Below, piece after piece: positions 16,771-51,200 of a stretch of DNA of 64,000 nucleotides. The notes below the pieces were generated by a model, which made no database searches, was not told where the DNA came from, and worked only from the letters and a program-made list of their open reading frames with translations. Within the stretch, counting starts at the first letter, position 1; the number at the start of each line of letters is the position of its first letter. Origin of the DNA: an uncultured bacterium (GTDB lineage: Bacteria; Planctomycetota; UBA8108; UBA1146). Location: contig CALEHF010000264.1 of NCBI GenBank assembly GCA_937876125.1, positions 267 through 64,266 of the forward strand. Direction: 5' to 3'. Position numbers and translations under genes: made by a program.

Positions 16771-19239
<2,469 letters not shown>

Positions 19240-19320: not shown

Positions 19321-19470
19321 GCCCGGTCGATCCGATTCATAGGCGACCCTCCAATGACCCACCCTCCCCAACCGGTACTCCTCTCTCGCCCGCCTGTGTG
19401 CTACCGTTCGCGGTAGTTGAGTCGGCCCCCCCGCCACGACCTCAGCTCTGAAACGGAGGAGCGAGTCGCA

Positions 19471-21600
19471 ATGCAGTCCATCTATCGCGCGGCTCCTCGC
19501 TCCCCCGGCAAGGATGTCGCACTCGGTATCGCATTCGCGCTCACCTACCTCGTCCTCTCACGACTCTGCATTGCGACCGCCGAATTCCGGGGGGGGTTGC
19601 CATCGGTCTGGCCACCCGCCGGGCTCTCCGCCGCACTCTTGCTCCTTCGGGGCCCGCGCTGCTGGCCCGCGGTCGTGCTCGGCAGTGGGCTCGTCGTTTG
19701 GTCGATGGGCCTCGGGGCACCGACCATCGCGTTCAACTGCCTCGCCCAGCTCGTCGAAGTTCTGCTGTTCATCGGCATCCTGTCCCGCGTGCGCGCATTC
19801 GATCTCTCCCTCTCGCGCACTTCTGACGTCACCAAGTTGATCTTGTGGGCCGCGCTCCCGAGCACACTCATTGGAGGACTGCTCGGAAACTTGGGGTGGT
19901 GGCTCGGTGGCGAACTCGCCGGCGATCAGGTCATCCGCGGCGCTCTCCTGTGGTGGTTGCGGAACTTCGCGGGGATCGTTCTCGTCACACCCTTGATCCT
20001 CGTGTGGTGGCAACGCCCTCTTTGGAGCCGTTCGACCTGGGTGTCGGTCCTCACTCCTTCGCTCCTCTTGGCTCTGGCCGCGATCGGCGTCGGCCGCATC
20101 ACGCCGCCCGCCTCCTTGGGGGCGCTGCTCGGACTCCTCACCCTGACGCTCCCCTTGCCCCTCATCGTGTGGGTCGGCTGGCGTCACGGCATGCACGGAA
20201 TCACCGTGATTCATGTCGCCATGTTCGTCGTCATCACCGAAGCGGGCTACCAACTGAACGCGGTCTACGGTCGAGCGATGGTGGTCCCCCACGTCGAGAT
20301 CGTCGTGTTCGAAGTGCTCGTCGCGATGATCGTCGTGGTCACCAGCCTGCTCCTCACGGCAGCGATTACGGAGAGGCGCGCCCTCGAAGCCTCGGCGCGC
20401 GTATCCCAACGTCTCGATTCCCTCGGGAGACTCGCCGGGGGAGTCGCCCACGACTTCAACAACATGCTCGCGGTGATCACCGCGAACCTGTGGATCGCCC
20501 GAGAGTCTCTCGCGGCAGAACCACATCCCGCAGATCCCAGCGCCCAAGAGCCGATCGAATTCAGCCTCGATCAGATCGAGCAGGCGGTCGAGCGTGCCGG
20601 CGGTCTCACCCGCCAACTTCTCCACTTCGGGAGAAAGGTCGGGGGGCGCGTCGAGGAGGTCGATCTCCCCGAGGTCGTCATCGAGATGAGGAAACTCCTC
20701 CACCACTTGGTCGGCACTCAGATCGAGCTCGAAGTGACGATCGATGATCCGATCGCGCCCATCCACATCGTGCGATCACAGGTCGAGCAGGTTGTCATGA
20801 ACCTGATTCTCAACGCGCGAGACGCCATCACGGGAAGCGGCGAGATCATGATCGGCCTTTCGATGACGAACGACGTGAACCCCGAATCACCCCAAGTGTG
20901 CCTCACGGTGAGGGACACGGGATCGGGGATCGACCGTCGCCTTCTCGAGCGAATCTTCGATCCCTTTGTGACCTCCAAGGAGGATGGACGAGGGACGGGT
21001 CTCGGGCTCGCTACGGTCTACGGGATCGTCAAGAGCGCCGGGGGCAGGATTGCGGTGGAGAGTCTCGTGGGGTCGGGAACGATGTTCTCGGTCCACTTCC
21101 CTGCCGTCGCCACGGAAGTCGCGAAAGGTCCTCAAGAGGAAACTCAGAAGAAGAGTGAGGCTGACCGTGGGCCAGACACCAGCGAGGAGACGCGAGGAGT
21201 CTCGCCAGCGCCCGGGGCCGCGAAGATCCTCGTCTGCGATGACGACGACTCCGTGCGGATGGCGATCGAGGGAGTGCTCTCTTCGGCGGGGTACTCTATC
21301 GTCGCGGCCGGGCATCCAAAAGAAGCGCTTCGCATGCTGGAGGAGGATGAATCGCTCCCCGACCTCCTTCTCACTGACATTGTGATGCCCGATCTCGATG
21401 GCCACCAGCTGGCCGGCCGGGTCCGAACGCTCCACCCGAGTATTCGGGTTCTCTACATGTCAGGCTACGCCAACTCGGGACATGTCGAAGAATCACAATG
21501 GTTGACCAAACCCTTCTCCGCAAAGAGTCTGCTCAGCCGCGTGCGCTTCCTGCTCGATCCGGAGGGCACGAAGCGTCCGCGAGAACCCGAGAGGGGTTAG
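19471..21600 (+). CDS. Hybrid sensor histidine kinase / response regulator with a polytopic (MASE1-like) N-terminal sensor
   Basis: About 8 N-terminal TM helices. HisKA H-box LGRLAGGVAHDFNNMLAVI, an HATPase_c region (GTGLGLATVYGIVK), and a C-terminal receiver KILVCDDDDSVRMAIE...LLLTDIVMPDLDGHQLA. Confidence 0.85.
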   Translation: MQSIYRAAPRSPGKDVALGIAFALTYLVLSRLCIATAEFRGGLPSVWPPAGLSAALLLLRGPRCWPAVVLGSGLVVWSMGLGAPTIAFNCLAQLVEVLLFIGILSRVRAFDLSLSRTSDVTKLILWAALPSTLIGGLLGNLGWWLGGELAGDQVIRGALLWWLRNFAGIVLVTPLILVWWQRPLWSRSTWVSVLTPSLLLALAAIGVGRITPPASLGALLGLLTLTLPLPLIVWVGWRHGMHGITVIHVAMFVVITEAGYQLNAVYGRAMVVPHVEIVVFEVLVAMIVVVTSLLLTAAITERRALEASARVSQRLDSLGRLAGGVAHDFNNMLAVITANLWIARESLAAEPHPADPSAQEPIEFSLDQIEQAVERAGGLTRQLLHFGRKVGGRVEEVDLPEVVIEMRKLLHHLVGTQIELEVTIDDPIAPIHIVRSQVEQVVMNLILNARDAITGSGEIMIGLSMTNDVNPESPQVCLTVRDTGSGIDRRLLERIFDPFVTSKEDGRGTGLGLATVYGIVKSAGGRIAVESLVGSGTMFSVHFPAVATEVAKGPQEETQKKSEADRGPDTSEETRGVSPAPGAAKILVCDDDDSVRMAIEGVLSSAGYSIVAAGHPKEALRMLEEDESLPDLLLTDIVMPDLDGHQLAGRVRTLHPSIRVLYMSGYANSGHVEESQWLTKPFSAKSLLSRVRFLLDPEGTKRPREPERG

Positions 21601-23670: not shown

Positions 23671-24303
23671 AGTGAAGGTCCTTCCAAAGTAACGCTGCCC
23701 GCTCTCTCCCCCTCTCGGGGCGCACTCGATCCGACCAGGCCGCAGCCGCGCTCAGCAACCCCAGTGCCGCATTGGCAAACGCAGAGGGGGGGCCAGAGAT
23801 GGAAGTTTCAGCTCCTCGGACCGCGCCCAGAGGGCAACACCTACTCCGAGATCGGTCAGAAACTACACCGGAGGGGGACGGAGCGCGGGCGAGGTTGCCC
23901 CAGAACGGAGGCCTCCTCGCCCACGCAAGCTCATTGTGCCATGGGCACAGCGAGAGCACAGCATCAGGAAACCGAGGATCGAGATCGGATCGGCGATGTG
24001 GATCGTTCCGTCGCCATCGCGTCCCGCGGCACGCTCACGGACAAGCGGCTCTCAGAAATGGCAGGCGGTCCGAGTGAGTTTCCCGGTAGCATCCTCGCCT
24101 TTCGTTGATCGCCCGCCCCAGTTGCCTATACTGTGGCGTTATCCCAGCCACCGACTGGAATTACGTCAGCGCCCCCCCAGGACCCTTGCCCGCTCGCCAC
24201 GGGCACCTTGCGAGTCGCTGATCCAATCAGACCCCGTGACATCGACCGAGCGCGCAACCGTGCCGCACATCCCCACGGCGGTCCCCCCTGGAGGAGAACT
24301 AGT

Positions 24304-25038
24304 ATGATCTTCGGGAAGATGTGGGCCGCCGTTCGCGCCCAGTTCAACAAGCTCGCCAACATGTTCTGGGAAGCGGATCCGATCGCCCAGATGCAGTACG
24401 AGTACGACATGGCCGTCGAACAGATGAAGGAGGGGCGCAAGGGGCTCGAGATCTATCGAGGGCTCGTCGAGCGCGTGTCTCGCCAAGTCACCGACGGCAG
24501 TCGTCACGTCGAGCGCCTCGAAGCGCAAACCAAGAGCTACCTGAAGATCGGCGATCGCGAGAGCGCCGCGAAGTTTGCGCTCGAGCTTCAGAAGCTCAAA
24601 CGCGATCTCGCCGAGAACGAGTCTCAGCTCTCGATGCACGAGCAAGCGTACGAGAACAACCTCAAGAAAATCCAGCACGCGAACAAGTCCCTCGGTGAAG
24701 TGCGCCAGAAGATCCGGAAGTACGACGCCGAGCTGAAGATGAGCGAAGCAGAGGCGGAAGTCGCTGCGCTCGCCGAGAGCTTCGAGATGAACGTCACGAC
24801 CGACTTCGGGCAGATCGAGCAGGTGATTCAGGACCGGATCGATGGGAACCGCGGCAAAGCTCGGGTTGCCGCCGACATGTCGAAGCGCGGGATCGCCGAC
24901 ATCGAGGCGGAAGAGCGGCTCGAAGCGTCTCTCGCCGATCAGGCCCTGGCCGACTTCGAAGTCGAGCTCGGCCTCGCCTCGCCCGAGACGACAACCATCG
25001 AAGAGGCCCCGAAGCAGCTCGGCAAAGAAGAGAGCTAG
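24304..25038 (+). CDS. pspA: PspA/IM30 (Vipp1/LiaH) family membrane-stress coiled-coil protein
   Basis: Strong RBS GGAGGAG precedes the ATG at 24304. MIFGKMWAAVRAQFNKLANMF... is followed by a roughly 220-aa heptad-rich helix typical of PspA/IM30. Confidence 0.8.
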   Translation: MIFGKMWAAVRAQFNKLANMFWEADPIAQMQYEYDMAVEQMKEGRKGLEIYRGLVERVSRQVTDGSRHVERLEAQTKSYLKIGDRESAAKFALELQKLKRDLAENESQLSMHEQAYENNLKKIQHANKSLGEVRQKIRKYDAELKMSEAEAEVAALAESFEMNVTTDFGQIEQVIQDRIDGNRGKARVAADMSKRGIADIEAEERLEASLADQALADFEVELGLASPETTTIEEAPKQLGKEES

Positions 25039-25112
25039 CTCTACTCCATTTCGACGACCGCACAACGCCACCACCGAGTGCACACCATCCGTAACATCAG
25101 GGGGGACCAACC

Positions 25113-26834
25113 TTGAGCGCTGGCAACAAACCAAAACCCGTCTTTTACATCGTGATGATCCTCGTCATCGGCGGCCTCGTCGCGTTGGCGATGAGCCAAA
25201 TGGGCGACCAAAAATCAGACGAGGGCTCCGGTAGTTTCTCGGACGACGAACTCAAGGATCTCCAAGGAGACATCGAGTTCCCCGACGAGACCGGAATCAC
25301 CACCGTTCAGGAATACGAGTTCGTCTCGACGACGCGCCTTCCCGAAGTGAAGGGAGTCTCCAACTACAAGGAGCTCACCGATCGCACGGTGAGATTTGCG
25401 ATCAACGTGTGGGCGGGGTGGGGACCGATCATCCACGCCAACGGCGGGTTCTCGCCGGGGAAAGAGTGGACTTCGCCGGGCGGTGAGCCGTTCAAGGTCG
25501 AACTGGTCCTCATCGATGATCCCATCGCGATGCGGGATAGCTATGCGGCTGGGGAAGTGCACATCGGCTGGGCGACCCTCGACATGGTGCCGCTCTTCAT
25601 GGAGTCGCTGAAAAAGGACTCGCGGGTCATGCCGCGGATCTACCAGCAGGTCGACTGGTCGAACGGCGGGGATGGAATCGTCGTCCGGAGTTCGATCCAG
25701 ACGATCTCTGATCTTCGGGGGAAGACCGTAGTTCTCGCCCAAAACTCGCCGTCGCACTTCTTCCTCTTGAACGCTCTGATCAACGCCGGCGTACAGCCGA
25801 GCGAGGTCAGCTTCAAGTTCACTCAAGATGCGTTCCAGGCCGCAGCTGCCTACAACGCCGACAAGTCGATTTCCGCGTGCGTGAGCTGGGCTCCCGACAT
25901 TTACAACCTGTCGGAAGTGAGCGGAAACAAGCTGATCGTGACTTCCGCGACGGCGAACAAGCTGATCGCCGACGTCTGGTTCGCCCGCGCTGACTTCGCG
26001 AAAGATCACCCGGACATCACCGAGGGACTCGTCCGCGGCATCTTCGATTCGATGATCGCGCTCGAGCAGCAGTCGGCCAAACAGGAGCTCGCCCAACTGA
26101 TGTCAGACGGCTTCTCCATCCCGCCGGATGATTGCCTCGCCATGCTCGGCGACGCGCACTCGACGAACTATGCGGAGAACCGCGAGTTCTTCATGAACAA
26201 GAACAACCCGACCAACTTCGAGCGCACCTGGAACACGGCGTACTTCCTCTACACCCGGATCCGTGCGGTCACCCAAAAGGTTCCCTTCGACCAAGTGATG
26301 GATTACTCGATCATTGAGAAGCTCGGCAAGGAGGAGATCTACGCGAGCCAAACCTCCGATTACGGAATGGTGTTCGCGCCCGCGGCGGCGAGTTCATTCG
26401 ATGTCGAGGACGAGATCCTCACCAAGACGGTGGTCATCAACTTCTACCCCAATAGTTGGGACATCTCGAAGGTGACCACGAAGACTGCGAACGGGAAGAC
26501 GATCGAAGAGCTCTACGACCCGAATGCGAAGTTCATCATCGAAGAGGTGGGCAAGCTCGCCGGCCAGTATGGAACCGCGCGGATCGTCATCGAGGGGCAC
26601 ACCGACGCGTCGATGCGCGGCAAGGTGAACGCCTCCCTGGTCAAGGACCTCGCCATGAACCGCGCGAATGCGGTGAAGCAGGCGATCGTGCGCAAGTTCG
26701 ACACCCTCCAGCCGAACCAGTTCTCCGCCACCGGCATCGGTTGGGACCGCCCCGCGGATCCCCAAGACCCGAAGAATCACGCGAAGAATCGCCGCGTCGA
26801 GATCAAGGTCTACCCCGCCGAGGCGGTGAAGTAA
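25113..26834 (+). CDS. Membrane-anchored NitT/TauT (NMT1/SsuA-like) substrate-binding protein fused to a C-terminal OmpA-like peptidoglycan-binding domain
   Basis: N-terminal signal-anchor helix VFYIVMILVIGGLVALAMS. The central roughly 350 aa are SBP-like. The C-terminal RIVIEGHTDASMRGKVNASLVKDLAMNRANAVKQAIV...NRRVEIKVY matches the OmpA_C signature. TTG start at 25113. Confidence 0.7.
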   Translation: MSAGNKPKPVFYIVMILVIGGLVALAMSQMGDQKSDEGSGSFSDDELKDLQGDIEFPDETGITTVQEYEFVSTTRLPEVKGVSNYKELTDRTVRFAINVWAGWGPIIHANGGFSPGKEWTSPGGEPFKVELVLIDDPIAMRDSYAAGEVHIGWATLDMVPLFMESLKKDSRVMPRIYQQVDWSNGGDGIVVRSSIQTISDLRGKTVVLAQNSPSHFFLLNALINAGVQPSEVSFKFTQDAFQAAAAYNADKSISACVSWAPDIYNLSEVSGNKLIVTSATANKLIADVWFARADFAKDHPDITEGLVRGIFDSMIALEQQSAKQELAQLMSDGFSIPPDDCLAMLGDAHSTNYAENREFFMNKNNPTNFERTWNTAYFLYTRIRAVTQKVPFDQVMDYSIIEKLGKEEIYASQTSDYGMVFAPAAASSFDVEDEILTKTVVINFYPNSWDISKVTTKTANGKTIEELYDPNAKFIIEEVGKLAGQYGTARIVIEGHTDASMRGKVNASLVKDLAMNRANAVKQAIVRKFDTLQPNQFSATGIGWDRPADPQDPKNHAKNRRVEIKVYPAEAVK

Positions 26835-26837
26835 CCG

Positions 26838-27641
26838 ATGGCGCAACTCTTCCCACTGCGAGTTCGACCGGGCCGGGTGATGCGCTGGGCCCTCGGTACC
26901 TCGGCGGTCCTCCTTCTCTTCGCCGTGTGGGAATACCTCACGTGGGGCACCGAAGCCGAGTCGCGGATCGTCTCTCCGGTCACCCTTCCGAGTCCCCTCG
27001 AGGTGTACATGAGCATCGGGAACCTGCTGACGGAGCGCGATCTCCTGAAGGGAGTCTCCGCAACGTTGTGGCGGGTCTTCCTCGGCTTCGGGCTCTCGAT
27101 CGCGGTGGGCGCACCGCTCGGAGTCCTCGCCGGCACCTGGCGAGGGATCGAAGCGTTCTTCGCCCCGTTGAGTCTCTTTGGCCGTAACATTCCGATCGCC
27201 GCGTTGATCCCGCTGACCGTGCTCTGGTTCGGGACCGAGAACTATCAGAAGGTGATGTTCATCTTCTTCGCCACCGTGCCCTTCGTGTTCGGGACTGCGG
27301 TGCAGGCGGTGGTCGAAGTGAAGGATCGGTACGTCGAGACGGCGCTCACGCTCGGCGCGAGTCGCGGGCAGGTTCTGAGAAAAGTGCTCTTGCCCCTCGC
27401 ATTGCCCGCGATCTACACCGGGAACCGAATCCTGTTCGGTCTGGCGTTCGGCTACATCATGCTCGCCGAGGCGATCAACGCGAAACACGGCCTCGGTCAC
27501 CTGATCATGACCAGCCAACGGCGCGGGCTGAACGAGCACATCTACGTGATCTTGATGGTGATCGGGCTCATCGCCTACGCGATCGATCGGCTGCTCTTCT
27601 ACATCGAGAAGTCCCTCTTCCCCTACCGGGAGAAGTCATGA
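26838..27641 (+). CDS. ABC transporter permease (NitT/TauT family)
   Basis: 6-TM protein with the EAA-like loop of type-1 ABC permeases. Follows the SBP after 3 nt. Confidence 0.85.
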   Translation: MAQLFPLRVRPGRVMRWALGTSAVLLLFAVWEYLTWGTEAESRIVSPVTLPSPLEVYMSIGNLLTERDLLKGVSATLWRVFLGFGLSIAVGAPLGVLAGTWRGIEAFFAPLSLFGRNIPIAALIPLTVLWFGTENYQKVMFIFFATVPFVFGTAVQAVVEVKDRYVETALTLGASRGQVLRKVLLPLALPAIYTGNRILFGLAFGYIMLAEAINAKHGLGHLIMTSQRRGLNEHIYVILMVIGLIAYAIDRLLFYIEKSLFPYREKS

Positions 27642-28531
27642 GCGGCGCCGACAATCCATCCTCGGCAGAGACCGAGACCGGGCAGCATCCCGCCCCAGCC
27701 GCGACCCCTGAGTCACCGCCAGTGGTCGAGTTCAAGAATGTCACCAAGACCTATGATTCAGGGACGATACGCGCGTTCACCGCGATCGAAAATGTGAATT
27801 TCACCGTGCCCGATCGACCGGATCACGGCGAGATGATTGCGATTCTCGGCCCGAGCGGCTGCGGGAAGTCGACGATTCTTCGCCTGATCGCGGGGCTCTC
27901 TCCGCAACACCCCGCGACGACCGGTGAAGTGTTGGTCAGCGGCACGCCGATCCTGGCCCCCGGAGCCGACCGCGGCATGGTGTTTCAGGCGTACACCTCG
28001 TTCGACAACCGCAACGTGTTCGACAACGTCGCGTTCGGTCTCGAGTGTTGCGGCGTCCCGCGAAAGGAGAGACGGGAGCTCGCGCGCGAATGGATCGTGC
28101 GCGTGGGCCTCGACCCCGATTCCGATGGAGACAAGTACCCCTACCAGCTGTCGGGTGGAATGCGTCAGCGAGTCGCGATTGCGCGCAGCTTGATCCTGCA
28201 CCCGAAGATCATGCTGATGGATGAACCGTTCGGCGCGCTCGATCCCACCACCCGGACTCGGATGCAGGATCTCCTCGTCGGCCTGTGGCGCGATCTCGAG
28301 GCGACTGTCTTCTTCGTGACCCACTCGATCGAAGAGGCGGTCTACCTCGGCGATCGCATCTACATACTCTCCACCTCGCCGGGAACGATCCTGCGCGAAG
28401 TCGAGGTCCCGGCACCCGACCGCCCCGCGCGGGAGATGCAGCGTGAACCTAAGTTCGTCGAGTTGGTGTTCGAGATCCGCGAGATCATCGAACGGCTCGA
28501 AGCTCAGAACGAAGAGAAGCTCGGCGGGTAA
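27638..28531 (+). CDS. ABC transporter ATP-binding protein (NitT/TauT family)
   Basis: Walker A GPSGCGKST, signature LSGGMRQRVAIARSL, Walker B IMLMDEPFGALD. Overlaps the permease stop by 4 nt. Confidence 0.9.
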   Translation: MSGADNPSSAETETGQHPAPAATPESPPVVEFKNVTKTYDSGTIRAFTAIENVNFTVPDRPDHGEMIAILGPSGCGKSTILRLIAGLSPQHPATTGEVLVSGTPILAPGADRGMVFQAYTSFDNRNVFDNVAFGLECCGVPRKERRELAREWIVRVGLDPDSDGDKYPYQLSGGMRQRVAIARSLILHPKIMLMDEPFGALDPTTRTRMQDLLVGLWRDLEATVFFVTHSIEEAVYLGDRIYILSTSPGTILREVEVPAPDRPAREMQREPKFVELVFEIREIIERLEAQNEEKLGG

Positions 28532-28558
28532 ACCCCGCTCTGAGGAGACTCAAAGCCG

Positions 28559-29443
28559 ATGGCCAGACGCGCGAAAGCCGGACTCTGGAGCTACCTGTCC
28601 CAGGCGTTCCTGTTCCGGTGGAATCTACTCTTCGCGCTCGGCGGCGCGGCGGCCGCCGCATTGAGCCCCGCGCCAGAAGTGTTCCTGCCCCTCATCGGGG
28701 CTGTGGAGCTCGCCTACCTTGCGGGGGTCACCTCGATTCCGAAGTTCCGCTCGGCCATCGATGCCAAGACCCACGCCGCCGGTCAGGGCATCCCGCTGAA
28801 TGCCGGGTCCAATCCCCAAAAGACGCTTCAAGCGCTCCTCACCGGACTCGATTCGGTGTCGCTGCGCCGCTTCGAGGCGCTCAGGCGCCGCTGCCTCGAC
28901 ATGCACTCCATCGCGCGCGGGGTCGGCGGGCGGGCGGGGGGTCGCGGACAACGCAAGGCGGAGCAGCTGACCAACCCTGGTCTCGATCGACTCTTGTGGA
29001 CGTTCCTGCGGATGCTCTCCTCGCGCACCTCGCTCGAGCGGTTTCTCGATTCGACGGACGAAGATTCGATACGGCAGAAGTTGGCTGAAACGCGCGTGCA
29101 GCTGACCGAAGCAGAAACTGCGGTCGACGAGCGACTCATCCGCTCGCTGCGCGACAGCTTGGCCACGCGAGAGATGCAACTCGACAACTACCAAAAGGCC
29201 CAGAGCAATGCGACCTTCGTCGCGGTCGAGCTCGACCGCCTCGAAGCCAAGATTCAAACGCTCAGCGAGTTGTCCGTGAACCGGCAAGACCCCGACTTCA
29301 TCTCCCGCGAGGTCGATTCGGTGGCGGCGAGTATCCAGCACACCGAAGAAGCGATGGAGGAGCTGCACCTCGTCGACGGTCTTCTCGACGATCTCGAAGA
29401 GCCCCCCGCGATCCTCGGCGCGCGCATGAAGGAGATCGAGTGA
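28559..29443 (+). CDS. Membrane-anchored coiled-coil protein (hypothetical; possible ESCRT-III/PspA-like helical hairpin protein)
   Basis: Two N-terminal hydrophobic helices, then about 170 aa of charged heptad-like helix and an acidic C-terminus (LVDGLLDDLEEPPAILGARMKEIE). The stop overlaps the start of the AAA ATPase by 4 nt. Confidence 0.55.
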   Translation: MARRAKAGLWSYLSQAFLFRWNLLFALGGAAAAALSPAPEVFLPLIGAVELAYLAGVTSIPKFRSAIDAKTHAAGQGIPLNAGSNPQKTLQALLTGLDSVSLRRFEALRRRCLDMHSIARGVGGRAGGRGQRKAEQLTNPGLDRLLWTFLRMLSSRTSLERFLDSTDEDSIRQKLAETRVQLTEAETAVDERLIRSLRDSLATREMQLDNYQKAQSNATFVAVELDRLEAKIQTLSELSVNRQDPDFISREVDSVAASIQHTEEAMEELHLVDGLLDDLEEPPAILGARMKEIE

Positions 29444-31302
29444 AGCCGGAACGCGGAACCCAGAAGCAGACCGAGCCCGCCGCGGGCGAGGCCGTCGCTC
29501 CCCTCGCTGCGGACGCGAAAGACCCGAACCTCGCCGCGGCGGATGCGATGCTCGGCGTCCCCAAGGAACGCATCCCCGCCTGGTACCCCGAGTGGGCGCG
29601 GCGACTCGCCGAGCTGTACTTCTCCGGCACGACCTCGGCGTTCGTCGTCTCTGGCAACGTCTTCGATCCGGTCGCGATGGAAACGAGCAAGGGGCGCGAC
29701 TATCAACCCCTCGCCGGATTCCTCGCGGAGGAGCTGTTCGGCAGCTGGGACTTGGTGTTCTCCTACGACCTCGCCCGCGGCCTGCGCTGCGTCGCCGGAT
29801 CGAACGGGAAACGTCTGAAGGACATGATCGCCCTCGCCAACCGAAAATATGGCGACATCTCGACGATCCCCCGCGATCCCGCCGCCGCCCTGAACTTCCT
29901 CGACAAAGTCGTGCAAAAGAACCTGATGGCGAAGGCGGAGGATCGCCTGAGCATCGCCATTGCGATCGATCATGCCTCGTACGTCGTGTCGCGCGGGGAG
30001 CCCGGGCACTTGAGCTCACGCATCGCGACCAACCTGGTCACGCTCCTCAATTGGGCGACCAGCCCGTACCTGAAACGCGTGAACATGGCGGTGGTCCTGG
30101 TCGACCCGAAGCACGCCGCGATCAACGAACGCCTCACGTCGAACCCGCACGTGGCGGCGATCGAAGTCGCGCTTCCCGATGAGGACCTGCGCCGTGGATT
30201 CGTCGAAGACCAGACCCAAAAGCTCGATCTCGCCTCCTTCTCCGACTTCGACGCCACTCAGCTCGCCGACCTCACCGCGGGGGTCTCGCTCGCCGACCTG
30301 GAAACTCTGATCCAATCGGCGCGCGAAGGAGGGCGACGCCTCGATGCCTCCCTGTTCCGGGCCTTGAAGAAGCGGCTCATCGAGCGGCAGTGCGAGGGGT
30401 TCCTCGAGTTCATCGAGCCGAAGTGGGGCCTCGACATGGTGGTCGGGCATGAAGCGGCCAAAGATCGCCTCCGAGAAGACGCCTCGCTCCTTGCGAAGGG
30501 TCGCCTCGAGACGGTCCCGATGGGTTACCTCCTGTGCGGCCCGGTCGGAACCGGCAAGAGCTTTCTCGCGCAGTGCGCAACCGGCACCTTCGGAGTGCCC
30601 TGCGTCATGCTGAAGAACTTCCGCTCGAAGTACGTCGGCGAGACGGAGGGGAACCTCCAGAAGGTGCTTTCGGTGCTCCGGGCGATGGGGCCGGTGGTGG
30701 TGATCATCGACGAGGCGGACGCGATGCTCGGCGACCGCGACCAGAGCGGCGACTCTGGGACATCGAGTCGAGTCTTTGCGATGATCGCGGCGCAGATGGG
30801 AGACACCCAATATCGAGGGAAGATCCTCTGGATGCTCCTGACGTGCCGCCCCGATCTCCTCCCGATCGACTTGAAGCGCCAGGGACGCGCCGAGGTCCAC
30901 ATCCCTCTCTTCTACCCGGCCGAGCAAGAAGAGCTGAAGAAGCTGTTCGTCGTCCTCGCGAAGAAGCTCGGAGCGGAGCTCGCCCCCGAGGATGTTCCCG
31001 AGATCCCCCACCTCGGCAATCTGAGTGGTGCGGATGTCGAGGGGATCGTCGGGAGGGCGCGGCGGCGCGCGCTCCTCGCTGGAGCGGACCGCATCACGAA
31101 GGAACACCTCGAGGCCACGCTCGCGCAGTTCATGCCCTCGACCGAGAACCTCGAACGACAACTGCAGGAGACCGCGGCCATCATCGAATGCACCGACAAG
31201 CAGTTTCTCCCGCCGCATGTGATCGAGCGACTCAAGAAGGTCGGCGGGCGGGCGAAGCTCGGAGAGCGCCTCACCGCGCTCGTCCAATTGGTCGGTCGAT
31301 AG
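29440..31302 (+). CDS. Two-domain AAA+ ATPase (degenerate N-terminal AAA-like domain plus classic-clade C-terminal AAA)
   Basis: C-terminal domain: Walker A GPVGTGKSF, SKYVGETEGNLQ, Walker B VVIIDEADAML, and a second region of homology. The N-terminal 330 aa carry a degenerate P-loop-like FVVSGNVFDP. Confidence 0.8.
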   Translation: MKPERGTQKQTEPAAGEAVAPLAADAKDPNLAAADAMLGVPKERIPAWYPEWARRLAELYFSGTTSAFVVSGNVFDPVAMETSKGRDYQPLAGFLAEELFGSWDLVFSYDLARGLRCVAGSNGKRLKDMIALANRKYGDISTIPRDPAAALNFLDKVVQKNLMAKAEDRLSIAIAIDHASYVVSRGEPGHLSSRIATNLVTLLNWATSPYLKRVNMAVVLVDPKHAAINERLTSNPHVAAIEVALPDEDLRRGFVEDQTQKLDLASFSDFDATQLADLTAGVSLADLETLIQSAREGGRRLDASLFRALKKRLIERQCEGFLEFIEPKWGLDMVVGHEAAKDRLREDASLLAKGRLETVPMGYLLCGPVGTGKSFLAQCATGTFGVPCVMLKNFRSKYVGETEGNLQKVLSVLRAMGPVVVIIDEADAMLGDRDQSGDSGTSSRVFAMIAAQMGDTQYRGKILWMLLTCRPDLLPIDLKRQGRAEVHIPLFYPAEQEELKKLFVVLAKKLGAELAPEDVPEIPHLGNLSGADVEGIVGRARRRALLAGADRITKEHLEATLAQFMPSTENLERQLQETAAIIECTDKQFLPPHVIERLKKVGGRAKLGERLTALVQLVGR

Positions 31303-31340
31303 AACCCAACCCGGAACGAAACAACGAAGAGGAGGCCCCC

Positions 31341-31631
31341 GTGGCAAGAACCAGTTGGTTTGACGAGAGCTCCGAAGTCCCGAACCTCGCCCAGAAGGTT
31401 CAAGAACTCGAGTCGTTCACCGATGCGATGGCGGACGGGATGATCAGCAGTGATGAGCTAGATGCCCAGCAAGATCGACTGATCACTGCGATGAAGGCGG
31501 TCGAGGCGGATCTGAACGATACCCAGCATTCGATGGTGACGACGATGCTGGTCGAGATGACCGCGTATGACATCATGCGCACCGTGCACGAGCTCCAGAA
31601 GGAGCGGCTCAAGCTGAAGTTTGGGAGCTGA
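31341..31631 (+). CDS. Small hypothetical protein (97 aa, acidic, helical)
   Basis: Strong RBS GAGGAGG sits 5 nt upstream of the GTG at 31341. Corresponds to the C-terminal 97 codons of the otherwise antisense ORF 30534..31631. Confidence 0.45.
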   Translation: MARTSWFDESSEVPNLAQKVQELESFTDAMADGMISSDELDAQQDRLITAMKAVEADLNDTQHSMVTTMLVEMTAYDIMRTVHELQKERLKLKFGS

Positions 31632-31721
31632 TCTCGGGTCTCCGGTGCTCCAATGTCGACCACGAGCGTGAGGAGGCCAGCCGCGGCTGGCGTCAGAATC
31701 GTGGTCGCTGATTTACGGCGC

Positions 31722-33731
31722 CTAGGGGGTCGCCGCCGCCACCGCAAATGCGGCTGCGTCCGCAGCCGCGCGCGCACGCCCCGCGGCATCTTTCGCGACG
31801 CTATCGTTCCCGGAGTTGTTGAATGCGTCCGCCGCAGTCTGGGCGGCGAGCTCCGCCTGGGCGGCGCGAGAGCCGGCGCCGAGCAGATCTCCCCGTGAAA
31901 TCGCATCGAGAGCGGACGCGAGGGCGTCCTCGGAGTTGGTCGCCGCTGCCACTGCGTAGCCGGCCTGCAGAACGTCATCGTTCTGCTCGGCCACGGTCTT
32001 GACGTTGCGATCCGCGGTGTCCGGCGCTTCCGTTTCCACCTTGTCGGCGTAGTCGACATCTCGCTGCTTGTCGAGATACTCGTTCGGATCGTCGATTACC
32101 TTCCCCATGTATCCCGGATCGTAGGTCCACGGATCGTAGACCGGGGAATCAGGGAGCAAGGAGAGCTTCGAATCCTCAAACTTGAAGTGCACGGGGCGGT
32201 TGTCGTCCCAGAGCACTCGGCGCATCGACACCCCGCTCGGGGTGTACGGCGGCAGAAGTGTTGCATCGAGAAGGTCGGAATCGAAGGACCAGAGCCGCTG
32301 AGGTGGAGAGTAGATCCCCGGTGCTCCCAACGGCGTCGTGGCGTACTGACTCTCGAAGAGGACCGCGAACGCCCCGCGGATCGTGAGCTGCTTCCCGGAC
32401 CAGCTCTCATGCAAACGCACGATGTTCTCGAAGCCACCCGAGCCGTAGCCGTTGTCGATGACGTGACCGCCCACGAACGAGAGATTGAAGGTCGTGTTCG
32501 CCCCCGCCGGGAGTTTGCTCGCTGAAGTCCGGGAGTTGTCCCAGGCATTCGAAAGCAGGTTCACGGCGTCGGCGATCGCCGAAGCGGGCTTCTTCGCGAT
32601 GGTGTTGTAGTCCCCTTGGATGTAGAGGGGGTTCTCCGTCACGACCGTCAACGGAGTCGGAAGAGTCGCGCCGTTGACCAGGCGAATTCCGTTCGGTTGG
32701 GTGGACGTCGAGTCGGTGCGGCGAGCGTAGATCAAACCGTTGGTCGGGAAGAAGCCCGACGCAGCGAGCAACCCGATGTCGATCTCGGTCACTGTGACAG
32801 TGGTCGCTTCTCTCGCATCCCACATCGTGGTTGACGTGACCACCCCAGCGGGAAGAAGGACCGGAACTCCCGCTGCGTTGTATGCCTGTTGGTCGACGAA
32901 TCGGAGGCCCGCGTTCGTCTCGTAGTAGCCGCCGGCTTCGATCGTGGGTAGCTCGGGAACCCCGACCGCCTCGATCCCGTGGGAGCCGCTCTGAACGCCT
33001 CCCCCCCAGCTCGAAAGAGCACCTTGCACCCAACCACTCGAACTCGAATCGTTGGTGTCGGTGAGCTCGACGTAGTTGGTTCCCTGATACTCGCGGATGA
33101 ACACCTGCCCGGGCGAGGTGGGGTCGACCACACGCCCCTTGAAAATCTGGCCGGTCGCTTTGACGTAGTCCGAGTCGATGGTGAGGGTCGCCGAAGTGTC
33201 GAGGTACAGATCGCCGTTGACGTGCACTCGACCCGCGACCGTCATGTCGGGACCCGGGCTCACTTGGCAGATCCCGTCATAGAAGATCGCGAACTGGAAG
33301 ATCGGGGTGATCGAGAGGTCGACGATCCGGGAGATCCTGGAGGTGGCCATCCCTTCGTCCCAACGAGCAGTGATCTGGTAGGGCTGGGCGATCATGCGCA
33401 CCCCGTCGTCGGCGAAACGCTCGACCGGAGCCCCGAGGGTCGTGGCGGTCCACGAGACCCTGCGCCCCCCAACGATCGCGACACCCGCGGTCGGCGGCGG
33501 TTGGAAGTTCGAGACTTCGTCGATCATCTCTTTCTGGGCGATCTCCATTGCGGCCTCGGTGAGACCGATCGCGAGCGTCATGTCCAGCTCGTGACGCATT
33601 GTCTTGGCCTGCAGGATCGTCGTCGTCAGCGTGCCGACGAGCAGAGTTCCGACGATGACAGAGAAGGCGAGCGCCATGATCAGAACGGTGCCGCGTTCGT
33701 TGGGTCTGAGTTGGGCGGCGGGGATCGGCAC
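31722..33731 (-). CDS. Large PilX_N-domain protein, paralog B (start estimated at GTG about 33731)
   Basis: N-terminus ERGTVLIMALAFSVIVGTLLVGTLTTTILQAKTMRHELDMTLAIGLTEAAMEIA matches the PilX N-terminal minor-pilin-like helix. An about 650-aa beta-rich body is co-linear with the upstream paralog (e.g. PNGIRLVNGATLPTPLTVVTENPLYIQGDYNT; PVYDPWTYDPGY). Confidence 0.65.
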   Translation of the reverse strand: MPIPAAQLRPNERGTVLIMALAFSVIVGTLLVGTLTTTILQAKTMRHELDMTLAIGLTEAAMEIAQKEMIDEVSNFQPPPTAGVAIVGGRRVSWTATTLGAPVERFADDGVRMIAQPYQITARWDEGMATSRISRIVDLSITPIFQFAIFYDGICQVSPGPDMTVAGRVHVNGDLYLDTSATLTIDSDYVKATGQIFKGRVVDPTSPGQVFIREYQGTNYVELTDTNDSSSSGWVQGALSSWGGGVQSGSHGIEAVGVPELPTIEAGGYYETNAGLRFVDQQAYNAAGVPVLLPAGVVTSTTMWDAREATTVTVTEIDIGLLAASGFFPTNGLIYARRTDSTSTQPNGIRLVNGATLPTPLTVVTENPLYIQGDYNTIAKKPASAIADAVNLLSNAWDNSRTSASKLPAGANTTFNLSFVGGHVIDNGYGSGGFENIVRLHESWSGKQLTIRGAFAVLFESQYATTPLGAPGIYSPPQRLWSFDSDLLDATLLPPYTPSGVSMRRVLWDDNRPVHFKFEDSKLSLLPDSPVYDPWTYDPGYMGKVIDDPNEYLDKQRDVDYADKVETEAPDTADRNVKTVAEQNDDVLQAGYAVAAATNSEDALASALDAISRGDLLGAGSRAAQAELAAQTAADAFNNSGNDSVAKDAAGRARAAADAAAFAVAAATP

Positions 33732-33786
33732 AATTTCTTCTTCCTGGCGAGAGGACCAGGGGAGCGATCTTCCGTGTTCGGGGGCA

Positions 33787-35934
33787 TTACGGCGTCGCTG
33801 CACTGATCGCCTCCCATGCGGCAGTCTCAGCGGCGCGTGCCCGCTTGAGAGCGTCAAAAGCCTCGGGACGGCCCCCTGAATTGTCGTAGGCAGTCTGAGC
33901 TTCCTCTGCGTAAAAGGTAATCCAGTCGGCAGAGGATCTCGCCGGCCCGAGCGTCCCGCGCGCGATCTTGTCGAGCGCCCAAACCAGCTCGCTCTCCGCA
34001 TTCGAAGCCGCGGTCTCCGCCTGTTGAATGGAGACCTGCTGCGCTGGGGTTGCGGTATCGCCCGACTGTTCAGCGACAGTTTTCGTGGTTCGGTCGGCGG
34101 TATCGGGCTCTTCCGCTTCCGCCTTGTTCGAGTAGTCCACTTTTCGTTCTTTGTCGAGGTACGCGTTCGGGTCGTCGATGATCTTGCTCAGGTATGAGCC
34201 GTCGTAGTTCCACGGATCGTAGACCGGCGTTTCGGGGAAGAGCGAGAGCTTGGAGTCATCGATCTTGAAAATGATCCGCCGGTTGTCATCCCAGTACACT
34301 CGCCGCATGTAGACCCCGCTCGGGGCGTAAGGCGGGAGGAGCGCCGGGTCGAGAAGATCGGGATCGAACGAGAAGACCCGAGTCGGGTCGACGAACGCCG
34401 AAGCGGAGAAGGGGCTCGTCGCATACTGGCTCTCGAACAAGACGACGATCGCGCCGAGGATCGTCAACGTCTGTCCGGTCCAGTCTTCGTGCAATCGGAC
34501 GAGATTCTCGAAACCACCTGAGGTGATGCCATCCTCGACCACTGCACCCGTGAGGATCGACAGGTTGTAGGAAGTGCTCGAGGCGACTTTGGTCGCGACT
34601 TCTCTGGTATTCACGGTGGCGAGTTCGGTGGTGAGCACATGGTCGAGATCGGTAGTTTCCTCGGACGTGGAAGTCTCGACCTTGATCAGCTCGGTCATGT
34701 CGACCCAGTCGTTCGACAGAAGATTCACCGCATCCGCGATCACTGACGCCGGCTGCTTGTTCACCGTGTTGAAGTTGCCTTGGATGTACAGCGGATTGTC
34801 GGTCACGATCGTGAGCGGAGTCGGGAGGGTCGAGCCGTTGACGATCCGGATCCCGTTCGGTGTGGTGACACTCGCTTCGGGCCGGCGAGCGTAAATGAGG
34901 CCGTTGGTCGGGTAGAAACCTGTCGCACTGAGTTGCTCGATATCGATTTCGGTCACAGTGACCGTCTTCTTCTCGCGCGCATCGTAGAAGGATTGCTCTT
35001 TGATGGCGGTGGTCGGGACACTCAGGAGTAACCCTGACCCATTGTAGGCCTGAGTTCCGATGACCTTCAGCCCGGCCGTGGACTCGTAGTAGCCGCCGGG
35101 TTCGATCGTCGTCACATCGGGGCCGGTGACCTTTCCGACCCCATGCGCGCCACTCTGGACCGATCCACTCCAATTCGAGAGCGCCGATTGCACCCAACCG
35201 ACAGAGGCCGCGTCGTCGGCCTCGGTCAGCTCGACGTAATTCGTCGTCTCCTGCTGGCGCACCGTCACGATCCCGGCCCGGGTGTCTTCGTTCAGCCTTC
35301 CGCGGTAGATCCCACCGGTCGCTTGTAGGTGATCGGTATCGATGTCGAGCGTCGTCGGGGTGTCGAGGTACAGGTCACCGTTCACGTGAATCCGGCCGAG
35401 GATCCCCATGGCGGCATCCGGGCTGATTTCGCACAGCATGTTGAAGAAGACCGCATACTGGAACATCGGGGAGAGAGTCAGATCGGCGACCCGAGTGATC
35501 CTCGATGTGGCAGATCCCTCGTCCACCGAGGCGGTGATCTCATAGGGCTGCGCGAGCATCCGCACCCCATCGATATCGAAGCGCTCCACGAGCATACCGA
35601 GCTGCGTCGCAGTCCAGTTGATCGATCGGCTATCGATGGTGACGGTTCCCGAGGTGGGGGGATCTTCGAAGTTTGCGGCCCCGTCGACCATCTGCTTCTG
35701 GGCGAGCTCGATCGCGCCCTCGGCCAAGCCTTGGGCGTAGGTCGCATCGAGTTCATGGCGCATCGTCTTCGCCTGGAGGATCGTGGTGGTGAGCGTGCCC
35801 ACGAGCAGCGTCCCGACGATAATCGAGAACGCCAGAGCCATGATCAGAACCGCGCCGCTCTCGCGGCCCCGCGCTCGATCGAGCAGCAGCTTGGGGTCCT
35901 TGAGGCCGTGGAATTCGGGGAGACGTCTCGCCAA
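33787..35934 (-). CDS. Large PilX_N-domain protein, paralog A
   Basis: N-terminus ESGAVLIMALAFSIIVGTLLVGTLTTTILQAKTMRHELDATYAQGLAEGAIELA, then an about 650-aa beta-rich body. Tandem duplicate of the downstream gene. Confidence 0.7.
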   Translation of the reverse strand: MARRLPEFHGLKDPKLLLDRARGRESGAVLIMALAFSIIVGTLLVGTLTTTILQAKTMRHELDATYAQGLAEGAIELAQKQMVDGAANFEDPPTSGTVTIDSRSINWTATQLGMLVERFDIDGVRMLAQPYEITASVDEGSATSRITRVADLTLSPMFQYAVFFNMLCEISPDAAMGILGRIHVNGDLYLDTPTTLDIDTDHLQATGGIYRGRLNEDTRAGIVTVRQQETTNYVELTEADDAASVGWVQSALSNWSGSVQSGAHGVGKVTGPDVTTIEPGGYYESTAGLKVIGTQAYNGSGLLLSVPTTAIKEQSFYDAREKKTVTVTEIDIEQLSATGFYPTNGLIYARRPEASVTTPNGIRIVNGSTLPTPLTIVTDNPLYIQGNFNTVNKQPASVIADAVNLLSNDWVDMTELIKVETSTSEETTDLDHVLTTELATVNTREVATKVASSTSYNLSILTGAVVEDGITSGGFENLVRLHEDWTGQTLTILGAIVVLFESQYATSPFSASAFVDPTRVFSFDPDLLDPALLPPYAPSGVYMRRVYWDDNRRIIFKIDDSKLSLFPETPVYDPWNYDGSYLSKIIDDPNAYLDKERKVDYSNKAEAEEPDTADRTTKTVAEQSGDTATPAQQVSIQQAETAASNAESELVWALDKIARGTLGPARSSADWITFYAEEAQTAYDNSGGRPEAFDALKRARAAETAAWEAISAATP

Positions 35935-48266: not shown

Positions 48267-51200
48267 TCACTGCACGAGGAGCGCCGGATCACCGAGCAGG
48301 ACCCAACTCCGAATCACGTCCGCGTTCTCTGGATCGTCGGCGAGTTGCTCCTGCGCGTTGCAGATCACATCGCCGATTCGGATCCCCGAGCCGAGGAAAA
48401 GACTGGAGTACAAAGCCTCCGCGAAGACCTGCTGCCTGAGAGTCGTCGTCACCGCGGTCGGTCCGAAGAAGGCAACCGCACCACCCGCCGGTTCGACGAC
48501 CAGCGCTTCCCCGAGGGATGGGGTCCCCGGGTGTTGGAAGAAACCGTTCAGGCAGTTCATGGCGATCACCAACGGGGGGGTCGGGTCGGGACTCAGGGCC
48601 GGCATGTCGCTCAGGAGAAGGATTCCCTCGTCCGCCCACTGCTGTCGGCTTCCGTGACCTGTGTAGTGGACCACCGTCGCACTCGGCCACTCGATCGTGA
48701 TGAGCTCGGTGCGGAGCGCGCTGATCGGCATCGTGTCCAACTCGAGCGAGTGTACGTTGACGCCGATCGGGAGGAGCGGCGGAATCACCGCGCTCATCCC
48801 GTCGAAGTCGTCCCCATCGTCGCCGATGAGGAGCACTCGAGGCTGCGGGAGAACCCGGCCCGGGGAGTCGTGCGCGATCGTTTTCTGGACCATCGTCTGG
48901 CACTCGAGCACGGTCGCGACAGGGAACCGACCCACGGCCAGTTCGGGGACTCCATCCCCATCCAGATCTCCGTAGTGCGCATCGGATGCTGTCTGGATTG
49001 AACCGACCTCGATGAGAGGAGTGGGCAGAATCTGCCGTGGGGAGTTGCCGAGGTGGCCCGCCGGATCGTAGGTCGCATCTCCAACGAGAAGGAGGAATGC
49101 CGGGCCCGGAGGACGTGCCCACTCGAGCGCGTTCTCGATGAATCTCTCAATCGCGTCAGAGGTGGGTCGCCCCCCGTCGAAGCGGTCGTAGATCTCCTCG
49201 AGTGAGACCACGGCGGTTCGCAGCCCCGTTGCGCGTCTCAAGGCCTCGAGCGGAAGGATTTCCGATCGGAACGCGTCGGGGCAAATCGCGATCCAGTCGG
49301 CATCGAGGGCCGCCCGGAGAGTCGTTTCTGTGCCGCGCGATTCGAGAGAGACCGCACCGCGCGCCGCGGCATCCGTGAAAGCCTCCACTACCCCACCGTG
49401 GGGAAGCGTGCACTCCACCGCCCACTCGGCCGGCGAGATCGAACTGACCGCCGCCCCGACGATCCGTCGAGGTTCATCGGTTCCGCTCCGCTGATAGACG
49501 GATATCGCATCGCTCGTGAAACCCTCGAACCGCACCGTGCTGCCTCCCGCGATCCGGGCGCGAAGGCGATCGGCTGCCGCGCTGTACAGCCGGGGATAGG
49601 TCACCCGAAGCGTATCGAGAAAGACGACGTCCGGCGTGTCGAGCAACTCCTGCTCGAGAGTGATCAGGTGAGAGCCGTTCGACACGAGCCCGGCGGGCAC
49701 CGAAAAGGTACCGCAATACGGGCCAGAGCCGTTCGCGGTCGCGACTCCGATCTCGACCCCATCCCAGAGGACGCGAGTGAGATGGTCCAAGGGGGCGAGA
49801 CGGTCCTCGCTCCACCCCTCGAGCCACAACTCCACCAGAGTCGGGGTGGCGGCGGGGGCCACCGCAGCCAGTTCGACGAGGAGTTCGAGAGAACCCGGGC
49901 TCGCGAGAAACTCGTCGAACCAGTGATCGCGCCCCGCACCATCGGCGAGGGACAGAACGTAAATGTCCTCTGCGGAGAACTCGATCCTGTGTGGGGATGC
50001 CCCGACGACGGCTGTAGAGAACGCCGGAGCTCCGGCGATCTCTGGAATTCGAGGAGGGGTGAGCCCGGGAGCGACGAGATCGAGGACGTAGACATCGAGT
50101 TTCGTCTCGGGGTGAGTGAACGGTACCGCGAGAAAATCGATCGCATCCCCCGGGTCGAACGAGCCGTCTGCGCCGCCGACGATGAAGATCGGGCACGCCT
50201 CATCATCACGCCGGAGTCGGAAGCGAGTCGGATCGACGCCGACGGGAAATCCTGCGGCAGCAAGGTCGGAGTGCCTGAGGCGGAGCATCCCGTCGGGCTC
50301 CACTCGGATGCGCAACGCCGCAGAACTCCCCGGAGCGCTCGCCTGGGTGAGCGCGGACGACGAGGAAGCAGTCGGGGTCGGCGTGGGGACCGGGAGCTGG
50401 GTCCCAACCCTCCTTCGGGAAGTGCGCGGGAACCCCATCTCGCTCAACTTCTGGGCAGCGCCATCCATCTGGTTCGGCCCGGCCGCCCTTCCCCTCGCGT
50501 GCTTTGCGACTGTGTTCCCCAGCTGAGACCGCCGCCCCGCCTGGTCGATCTCGATCAATCGGTACTGTGCGCCTGGGTGAGCACCCGGCAGGTCATCGAC
50601 CAAGCGGTAGCTCGCCCCGCCCGGGGCCACTCCGCGGGCGGGTATCAGCTCTGGTCCGATGGGGGTGAACGACCCGCCCGAAGCGGCGCGCTCGAGCTGG
50701 AATCCCAAGCAGCACCACTCGGCAGATGTCTCCCACCCGAGGACGACGTCAAGAGCCCCGGCGGTGGCGGCGAAGGTGTTCAACCGAGCGGGGGTGGAAG
50801 CGCCCCAGATGATGAAACCAGGGGTCACGGTCCCGCCACCGTTGTCGTCCTCGTTCGCAGCGCCGCCGAAGTCGCCACCGTAGGGGTCAAAAGTGATCGC
50901 AGCGGTCGCGGCCTGGGTCACCACGTTGTTCGCTAGATTGCTGTTCGGATCCTCGAAGTAGACCGACGCAAGAGTGACGGCGTTGTCGTTATCCATGATT
51001 GTGAGCAGGGTGCCCCCGGGCGCGCCATATGCGAGATACACGTCATCGAATTGCGTGAGTGCGGTGACCGAGGCGCTGTCGGTGATCTGGAGTCCGAACG
51101 CGTCCATGTACGCGAAGTAGGCACTGCTCGCGTTTAAGATCCCTTCGGCGTCGACGGCAAAAGAATAGCGCCCGGGCGTCGCAGTGTCGGAGGCCGTGAC

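Follow-up and report, generated by a model that had tools for sequence, protein, structure and literature searches.

A near-invariant seven-gene operon joining PspA, a predicted ABC importer, a membrane-anchored helical protein and a tandem AAA ATPase

Introduction

Do bacteria possess an ATP-driven machine that remodels PspA? The disassembly of bacterial ESCRT-III-family polymers, such as those of PspA and Vipp1, is an open question, and according to a 2025 review a Vps4-like ATPase appears to be absent in bacteria. A locus in an uncultured bacterium of the Planctomycetota (UBA8108, UBA1146; assembly GCA_937876125.1, contig CALEHF010000264.1) bears on this question. The window analysed here is a stretch of 64,000 nucleotides (nt) of this contig. 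An earlier note, made from the letters of this DNA, had described a trio of genes in it, encoding a membrane coiled-coil protein, a tandem AAA ATPase and a small acidic protein, and regarded them as a possible ESCRT-III/Vps4-like module. We found that the three open reading frames (ORFs; 28559..29443, 29440..31302 and 31341..31631) are not a free-standing trio and form the 3' half of a larger operon, which begins with the PspA gene and also encodes the components of an ABC transporter.

This operon, together with the ESCRT-III/Vps4-like hypothesis, has already been published computationally. Ravi, Anantharaman, Aravind, Gennaro and colleagues (2024; mSystems 9:e00847-23, PMC11237479) catalogued it with OGG56892.1 from Ca. 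Handelsmanbacteria as the example (main text section 18, Supplementary Text 2.2 and Table S3). The published order is PspA, SIG+PBPB+OmpA, TM permease, ABC ATPase, SIG+TM+Snf7, and inactive classical AAA + classical AAA, and an ATP-dependent membrane remodelling comparable to Snf7/Vps4 and linked to solute transport was proposed. Full-text literature searches returned no experimental study of the operon. Beyond that report, the present analysis quantifies the near-invariance of the seven genes, adds a 96-aa protein and a VWA protein as recurrent components, and places the ATPase near Cdc48/Rix7 rather than near Vps4.

Organization of the Operon

The operon spans 24304..31631, and its seven genes all lie on the forward strand (+), with the 3' end facing a convergent gene. 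The first gene (24304..25038), which has a GGAGGAG ribosome-binding site (RBS) upstream, encodes a PspA/IM30 protein of 244 aa. It is followed by the genes for a membrane-anchored substrate-binding protein with a C-terminal OmpA-like domain (SBP-OmpA, 573 aa, 25113..26834), an ABC permease (267 aa, 26838..27641) and an ABC transporter ATPase (297 aa, 27638..28531). The SBP-OmpA and permease genes are separated by 3 nt, the permease and ABC ATPase genes overlap by 4 nt, and 27 nt lie between the ABC ATPase gene and the next one (28559..29443). The latter starts with ATG, has GAGGAG 10 nt upstream, and encodes a membrane-anchored, all-helical protein of 294 aa, called TMcc here. Its TGA stop (29441-29443) overlaps the GTG start of the tandem AAA ATPase gene (620 aa, 29440..31302) in the 4-nt GTGA (sequence GAGTGAAG). 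After a gap of 38 nt, the last gene (31341..31631), with a GTG start and an AGGAGG RBS 5 nt upstream, encodes an acidic helical protein of 96 aa.

The coordinates of the two larger ORFs and their stop/start overlap thus agree with the earlier note, as do the RBS and the acidic, helical character of the third product, whose length is 96 aa instead of the 97 aa claimed. The PspA gene, said to lie a few kb upstream in the same orientation, was found there, and its 3' end is 3.5 kb before the 294-aa ORF. The statement that the trio has no obvious metabolic context did not stand: its operon also encodes an ABC transporter of the TauA/SsuA type, with an OmpA peptidoglycan-binding domain on the binding protein. 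Compared with the operon of Ravi et al., the genes here correspond one for one, in the same order, on one strand and with the same domain architecture, the identity being at the architecture level only.

Conservation across Genomes

One genome per GTDB species was scanned, in which 294 loci encode a relative of TMcc, and the best 80 of these loci were analysed. A profile hidden Markov model for each operon protein was compared with the six-frame ORFs of the 80 loci; only loci with enough flanking DNA were counted as assessable, and a gene had to be on the same strand and at the expected position. The AAA ATPase gene lies beside the TMcc gene in 75/75 assessable loci, so the pair is conserved as neighbours elsewhere. 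The permease (69/69) and SBP-OmpA (62/62) genes were likewise found at their places in every assessable locus, the ABC ATPase gene in 72/73, the PspA gene in 58/59 and the 96-aa gene in 60/70. Since this order recurs in essentially all 80 species-level loci, the gene arrangement is far from chance. That PspA is functionally linked to the coiled-coil/AAA pair, as suggested earlier, is therefore strongly backed by the presence of the AAA gene in 75/75 and the PspA gene in 58/59 loci across several phyla.

Most of the 80 loci belong to Acidobacteriota (Vicinamibacterales, Bryobacterales, Solibacteraceae and Terriglobia), and the remaining ones to Myxococcota (Anaeromyxobacter, Kofleriaceae, Nannocystaceae and Paraliomyxa miuraensis), Planctomycetota and Gemmatimonadota; in these four phyla the seven-gene order is nearly invariant. 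Exact-protein look-ups of six relatives returned the same string each time, an optional VWA gene followed by PspA, SBP/OmpA, permease, ABC ATPase, TMcc, AAA and a protein of ~95 aa, with unrelated flanks. At least one carrier is cultured (Paraliomyxa miuraensis SMH-27-4, locus L078), which makes the operon directly testable.

A few loci depart from this picture. In L029, ~3 kb are inserted between PspA (2556-3338) and the SBP gene (6613), and the genes upstream (VWA, PspA, SBP and permease) are split into several frame-shifted fragments in L053 and L059, possibly through pseudogenisation or long-read assembly error. Locus L019 (CAYTLW010000045.1) carries the full operon and is labelled 'uncultured Enterobacteriaceae', a family from which the operon is otherwise absent among the matches; it is probably a mis-binned or mislabelled metagenome-assembled genome.

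The Tandem AAA ATPase

The 620-aa protein contains a C-terminal AAA cassette with lid (D2, residues 355-560, 30502..31119), which was recognised as PF00004 at residues 363-489 (E 3.8e-24) followed by AAA_lid_3. Within D2, the Walker A motif GPVGTGKS (residues 367-374, 30538..30561), the pore loop 1 SKYVGETE (residues 396-403, 30625..30648), the Walker B motif VVIIDEAD (residues 419-427, 30694..30720) and the arginines R470, R480 and R483 are invariant in 41 sequences, which are 64-85% identical across phyla. The identity of 64-66% between phyla, together with the invariant catalytic and pore residues, indicates very strong purifying selection. With an aromatic pore loop 1, Walker A/B motifs and arginine fingers, D2 shows the features of the classic clade. 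The SKYVGETE segment had been noted before and is present as described, but it is pore loop 1 and not the second region of homology.

The protein opens with 45 disordered residues of variable sequence, directly after which comes a degenerate AAA domain (D1, residues 46-320, 29575..30399). In D1, FVLHGNxxD stands in the place of the P-loop, no Walker A is present, and the Walker B DE is replaced by D followed by H or Q (41 sequences). The AlphaFold2 (AF2) model of this domain has a predicted local distance difference test score (pLDDT) of ~85 with the alternating strand/helix order of AAA domains, and D1 gives a weak but in-register match to Sec18/NSF D1 and the paraplegin AAA. Alignment, Pfam and Foldseek thus bear out the proposed architecture of a degenerate N-terminal AAA-like domain and a C-terminal classic AAA, and the inactive N-terminal AAA reported by Ravi et al. 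is found in the window ATPase as well. Judged by its motifs, the protein is predicted to be a type-II tandem AAA ATPase of the classic clade with a nucleotide-dead D1 and an active D2. A helical, conserved extension of ~55 residues forms its C-terminus.

The earlier note had likened this ATPase to Vps4, and this likeness was not upheld. With the whole ATPase model, Foldseek aligned ~600 columns, covering both domains, to Rix7, MSMEG_0858, p97, Cdc48, Drg1/Afg2 and NVL (E ~1e-13, probability 1.0). Among PDB sequences, Afg2, VAT and Cdc48 come nearest with their D2 domains (E 1e-30), and no Vps4 chain is among the 60 best matches. The NCBIfam scores were 79.8 bits for CDC48, 74.4 for PAN, 57.4 for IteA, 56.4 for FtsH and 46.7 for CdvC, all far below the family cutoffs (802 bits for CDC48 TIGR01243, 650 for CdvC and 510 for IteA). 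The protein is also tandem rather than a single cassette. By sequence and predicted structure, it is closest to Cdc48, Afg2 and Rix7 and is not a Vps4 orthologue.

The Membrane-Anchored Protein TMcc

TMcc belongs to a large family of more than 1765 relatives without a Pfam domain, and a profile search returned 1150 cluster representatives at 50% identity. Searches of Pfam, NCBIfam and PADLOC assigned no family to it. Matches to Trns_repr_metal (FrmR-type, 18/42 members) and H-kinase_dim (15/42) in Pfam were dismissed as coiled-coil noise.

The AF2 model of TMcc, built with 42 homologues, is all-helical with a mean pLDDT of 82.8. Its N-terminus consists of two hydrophobic helices (AF2 helices 9-34 and 39-59, with moderate KD19 peaks of 1.5-1.7), which are predicted from AF2, KD19 and the alignments to form a membrane hairpin (residues 9-59 in the model; hydrophobic part at residues 13-59, 28595..28735). 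Four residues in this hairpin (W21, N22, P44 and E50) are invariant in both family alignments. Basic residues flank both helices, which predicts a cytoplasmic location for the N- as well as the C-terminus. Three helices (residues 61-75, 86-96 and 99-124) and a Gly/Arg-rich linker (residues 125-139) lead to a long helical hairpin, predicted to be cytoplasmic (residues 140-188 and 191-241, 28976..29281, pLDDT 90-98), which is followed by another helix (residues 245-267) and a flexible tail (residues 268-294). Residues 262-294 (33 residues) have a net charge of -9, and the two N-terminal membrane helices and the acidic tail described in the earlier note were thus recovered by AF2, KD19 and charge.

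The tail contains a conserved EPPAIL motif (residues 281-286, 29399..29416), in which P283, I285 and L286 do not vary among 42 sequences; P283 is >=90% conserved in 77 diverse members. The motif might serve as a peptide recognised by the ATPase and is a candidate for this role. On the model, TMcc would combine a hairpin in the membrane, a second, long and helical one in the cytoplasm, and a conserved tail that is acidic and contains proline. The predicted layout would agree with the alpha1/alpha2-3 hairpin and alpha4 of an ESCRT-III-like protein, although no significant match to one was obtained.

PspA and the Transporter Genes

The first gene of the operon encodes a member of the PspA/IM30 family. 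Its product matches PF04012 with E 6e-11 and 42.8 bits against a gathering cutoff of 33.9, residues 2-217 aligning to positions 1-212 of the 220-position model. It is 66-79% identical to the operon PspAs at six other loci.

The second product, SBP-OmpA, is TauA/SsuA/NMT1-like. Pfam detected OmpA (residues 469-559), NMT1 and Phosphonate-bd, NCBIfam gave matches to ABC_peri_uca and SsuA_fam, and the best solved relatives in the PDB are TauA (6ssy, E 5e-10) and Omp38 (3td3, E 3.6e-8). An N-terminal membrane anchor combined with a C-terminal OmpA-like peptidoglycan-binding domain is unusual among the receptors of ABC importers. According to this domain composition, SBP-OmpA would be clamped between the inner membrane and the cell wall, like MotB or TssL. 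The permease (BPD_transp_1, PF00528, E 1e-21) and the ABC ATPase (PF00005, E 1.3e-27) are predicted to complete, with SBP-OmpA, an ABC importer of the NitT/TauT type.

Proposed Function of the Operon

Taken together, the operon may encode a PspA-centred machine for envelope or membrane maintenance, in which the ATPase disassembles or recycles a membrane-bound polymer; we would give this reading about an even chance. TMcc would sit in the inner membrane and recruit a hexamer of the translationally coupled ATPase. Like LiaI or PspBC, it would also recruit PspA or co-assemble with it. The C-terminal tails of PspA, TMcc or both, being exposed, could then be drawn through the KYVG pore loops of the D2 ring, and this threading would disassemble or recycle the membrane-bound polymer, functionally like Vps4 on ESCRT-III. 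SBP-OmpA, which would be held by both the membrane and peptidoglycan, might link the remodelling in the cytoplasm to envelope geometry or to a solute in the periplasm, and the 96-aa protein and the frequent VWA protein are presumed to be accessory subunits or regulators.

Several results weigh against this proposal. The action of the ATPase on PspA or TMcc is a step that we infer, the role and ligand of the ABC transporter are left unexplained, and D2 has low confidence in the AF2 model of the ATPase. Pfam found no MIT domain in the ATPase, the domain through which Vps4 recognises ESCRT-III. For TMcc, no Snf7 or PspA match came from Pfam when 42 members were compared at E<=10, its profile gave none among the PDB sequences, where a single match at E 0.13 was obtained, and Foldseek against the PDB returned nothing below E 0.34. 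An hhalign comparison of the 77-sequence TMcc profile with PspA and Snf7 alignments yielded a probability of <1%, this being a low-power test. The targets of this comparison were the operon PspAs, E. coli PspA plus the operon PspAs, and Snf7/CHMP alignments; the Snf7/CHMP/PspA seeds were validated by Pfam and by 99% identity to database Snf7, and deepening of the Snf7 profile returned mostly vertebrate CHMP3 and added little diversity. TMcc against Snf7 gave P=0.17, and the PspA-versus-Snf7 positive control was itself weak (P 0.017-0.087). With a weak control and shallow profiles, the hhalign negatives therefore carry little weight.

An ESCRT-III/PspA-like fold of the 294-aa protein was not confirmed: a long helical hairpin is confidently modelled by AF2, and no significant profile or Foldseek match accompanies it. 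Six chains of the CdvB2 filament are among the top 50 Foldseek matches of TMcc (E 0.43, probability 0.57-0.77), a weak likeness, and no PspA, Vipp1, CHMP or Snf7 entry is among these 50. The 'divergent Snf7' call made on the membrane protein by Ravi et al. was not reproduced by Pfam, hhalign or Foldseek, and this assignment should be taken with caution, as standard profile and Foldseek searches do not recover it. A stronger version of the proposal, which we regard as doubtful, holds that TMcc might be an ESCRT-III-like subunit that has diverged strongly, is integral to the membrane and forms joint polymers with PspA, with the p97-like AAA as the dedicated disassemblase and the SBP wiring in a signal. 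If this were true, the operon would give bacteria a complete ESCRT-III/AAA machine with an origin separate from that of Vps4, wired to a periplasmic or envelope-geometry signal through a binding protein between the inner membrane and peptidoglycan. It would also contradict the statement of the 2025 review, as bacteria would then have an ATPase that remodels ESCRT-III polymers.

The nearest competing explanation is the quality control or extraction of membrane proteins, which we consider unlikely. TMcc would here be the anchor or adaptor of a split FtsH/Msp1/Cdc48-like unfoldase that extracts or resets membrane proteins after damage. The co-encoded ABC transporter or the peptidoglycan-tethered SBP may be among its clients, and PspA would only seal the membrane during extraction without being a substrate. 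The resemblance of the ATPase to substrate-threading unfoldases (Cdc48, Afg2, Rix7, VAT and PAN), its aromatic pore loop and lack of an MIT domain, its translational coupling to a membrane protein, and the lack of a detectable ESCRT-III signal in TMcc all fit such an extractor. However, the operon encodes neither a protease partner nor a protease domain, and an anchor would not need the long, conserved hairpin that TMcc is predicted to extend into the cytoplasm. The retention of PspA in nearly every locus also argues for a specific rather than a generic partnership.

A transport-centred function, the uptake of a sulfonate-, taurine-, nitrate- or urea-like solute with the AAA, TMcc and PspA as assembly or gating factors of an unusual transporter, seems quite improbable to us. 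Three of the seven genes would constitute a complete importer of the NitT/TauT type, and they are as invariant as the AAA pair. Importers of this family nevertheless function without such accessories, no genes for catabolism or assimilation of a solute are present in the operon, and the flanks vary among genomes, while the OmpA anchor on the SBP suggests a structural or sensing role over scavenging. The last alternative, an anti-phage defence module with an IetA/IteA-like AAA in a defence island (a context the earlier note had suggested), is rejected as very improbable, because its partial matches (PADLOC IetA at E 8e-20, NCBIfam IteA at 57.4 bits against the cutoff of 510) are sub-threshold and confined to the generic AAA cassette, neither an IetS protease in the operon nor other adjacent defence genes were found, and the extreme conservation, fixed order across phyla and housekeeping-type variable flanks are unlike fast-evolving, patchy islands.

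The PspA-centred maintenance machine thus remains the reading that we carry forward. By combining PspA, a conserved threading-type AAA and a putative membrane adaptor in at least four phyla, the operon stands out as the best candidate, on genomic grounds, for a remodeller of PspA driven by ATP.

Comparison with Known Systems

The ESCRT-III/Vps4 systems (CdvB/CdvC and Snf7/Vps4) share with this operon the pairing of an ESCRT-III-superfamily protein, here PspA, with a classic-clade AAA that has an aromatic pore loop. A polymer/disassemblase logic is plausible in both, the substrate candidates here having conserved C-terminal tails. The differences are that the ATPase of the operon is a tandem type-II protein with a dead D1 and lacks both MIT and the Vps4 beta-domain, that it scores higher against Cdc48 and PAN (79.8 and 74.4 bits) than against CdvC (46.7 bits), that its neighbour is an integral membrane protein without demonstrable ESCRT-III homology, and that an ABC transporter is embedded in the operon.

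The best sequence and structure matches, all with two stacked AAA cassettes, are Cdc48/p97, Afg2/Drg1, Rix7/NVL and the mycobacterial MSMEG_0858. Unlike the Cdc48/p97 family, the window ATPase has no double-psi-barrel N domain, its D1 lacks a P-loop, its score falls far short of the family cutoff (79.8 versus 802 bits), and it possesses the helical C-terminal extension of ~55 residues. FtsH and Msp1/ATAD1 resemble the system in that a classic AAA ring is held at the membrane by helices, the anchor here being a separate, translationally coupled protein; in contrast to them, the window ATPase lacks a protease domain, is anchored in trans and is a tandem AAA.

In the Psp/Lia systems (E. coli PspF-PspABC and B. 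subtilis LiaI-LiaH), PspA is likewise accompanied by a small membrane protein that could anchor or sense. The AAA protein of the operon might bind PspA and in this resembles PspF, and TMcc resembles PspB/C or LiaI. However, this AAA is of the classic clade, not the NtrC type, and has no DNA-binding domain. PspB, PspC, LiaI and Toastrack domains were not detected in the operon.

The 96-aa Protein and the VWA Gene

The published string ends at the ATPase, whereas here the 96-aa gene follows. Its product is acidic (pI 4.46), and 16 positions are invariant in 24 sequences of the family, with a conserved motif of W6, D8, L23..F26, ADG at 31-33, E39 and Q43. Searches of Pfam and the PDB gave matches at noise level and no family. 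SHOCT-like (DUF1707, E 0.057) and Vps28 matches were each found in only 2/24 members and were treated as noise. The gene is missing in 10 loci, such as L006 and L016, where a convergent gene comes directly after the ATPase.

A gene for a VWA protein of ~260 aa lies immediately upstream of PspA in L001, L004, L007 and L008, and in 26/56 assessable GTDB loci. None was found in the window at 23671..24303, nor in the closest Planctomycetota loci (L009, L010 and L012). The VWA gene, which is not named in the published operon string, may be an optional eighth component.

Expression Signals and Other Genes in the Window

Scanning of 23600-32000 for promoters and terminators gave matches at chance level. 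The sole sigma-70-like promoter match in this region (24105..24132, TTGATC-16-TATACT) lies 170 nt before the PspA start, one being found against 0.9 expected. The RNA fold of the PspA-SBP intergenic region is unremarkable (z +0.58), and no tRNA or Rfam family was found in the window. A nested, GC-rich hairpin (GACCACGAG...GGCCAGCCGCGGCTGGCG...CGTGGTC) was observed at 31657..31707, in the gap where the operon and its convergent neighbour meet; at -44.5 kcal/mol for 101 nt (z -1.67) it is statistically not distinct from shuffles, and it is a possible candidate for a bidirectional terminator.

Two genes lie a few kb upstream of the operon, the first (16771..19239) for a double AAA chaperone of the ClpA/ClpC type and the second (19417..21600) for a hybrid histidine kinase with MASE1; no conserved link of either to the operon was seen in the other loci. 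Converging on the 3' end of the operon, two tandem paralogous ORFs of ~660-760 aa are encoded on the reverse strand (31722..35934, -). No Pfam family was assigned to them. They share 56% identity over 697 residues, and in each a hydrophobic, pilin-like segment (VLIMALAFS.IVGTLLVGTLTTTILQAKTMRHELD) lies at the N-terminus and the C-terminus is rich in Ala. Finally, we also identified a 2039-aa ORF (48267..54386, -) with a C-terminal Peptidase_C25 domain (gingipain-like, E 1e-66) and a G8 domain, which probably encodes a giant secreted or surface protease.

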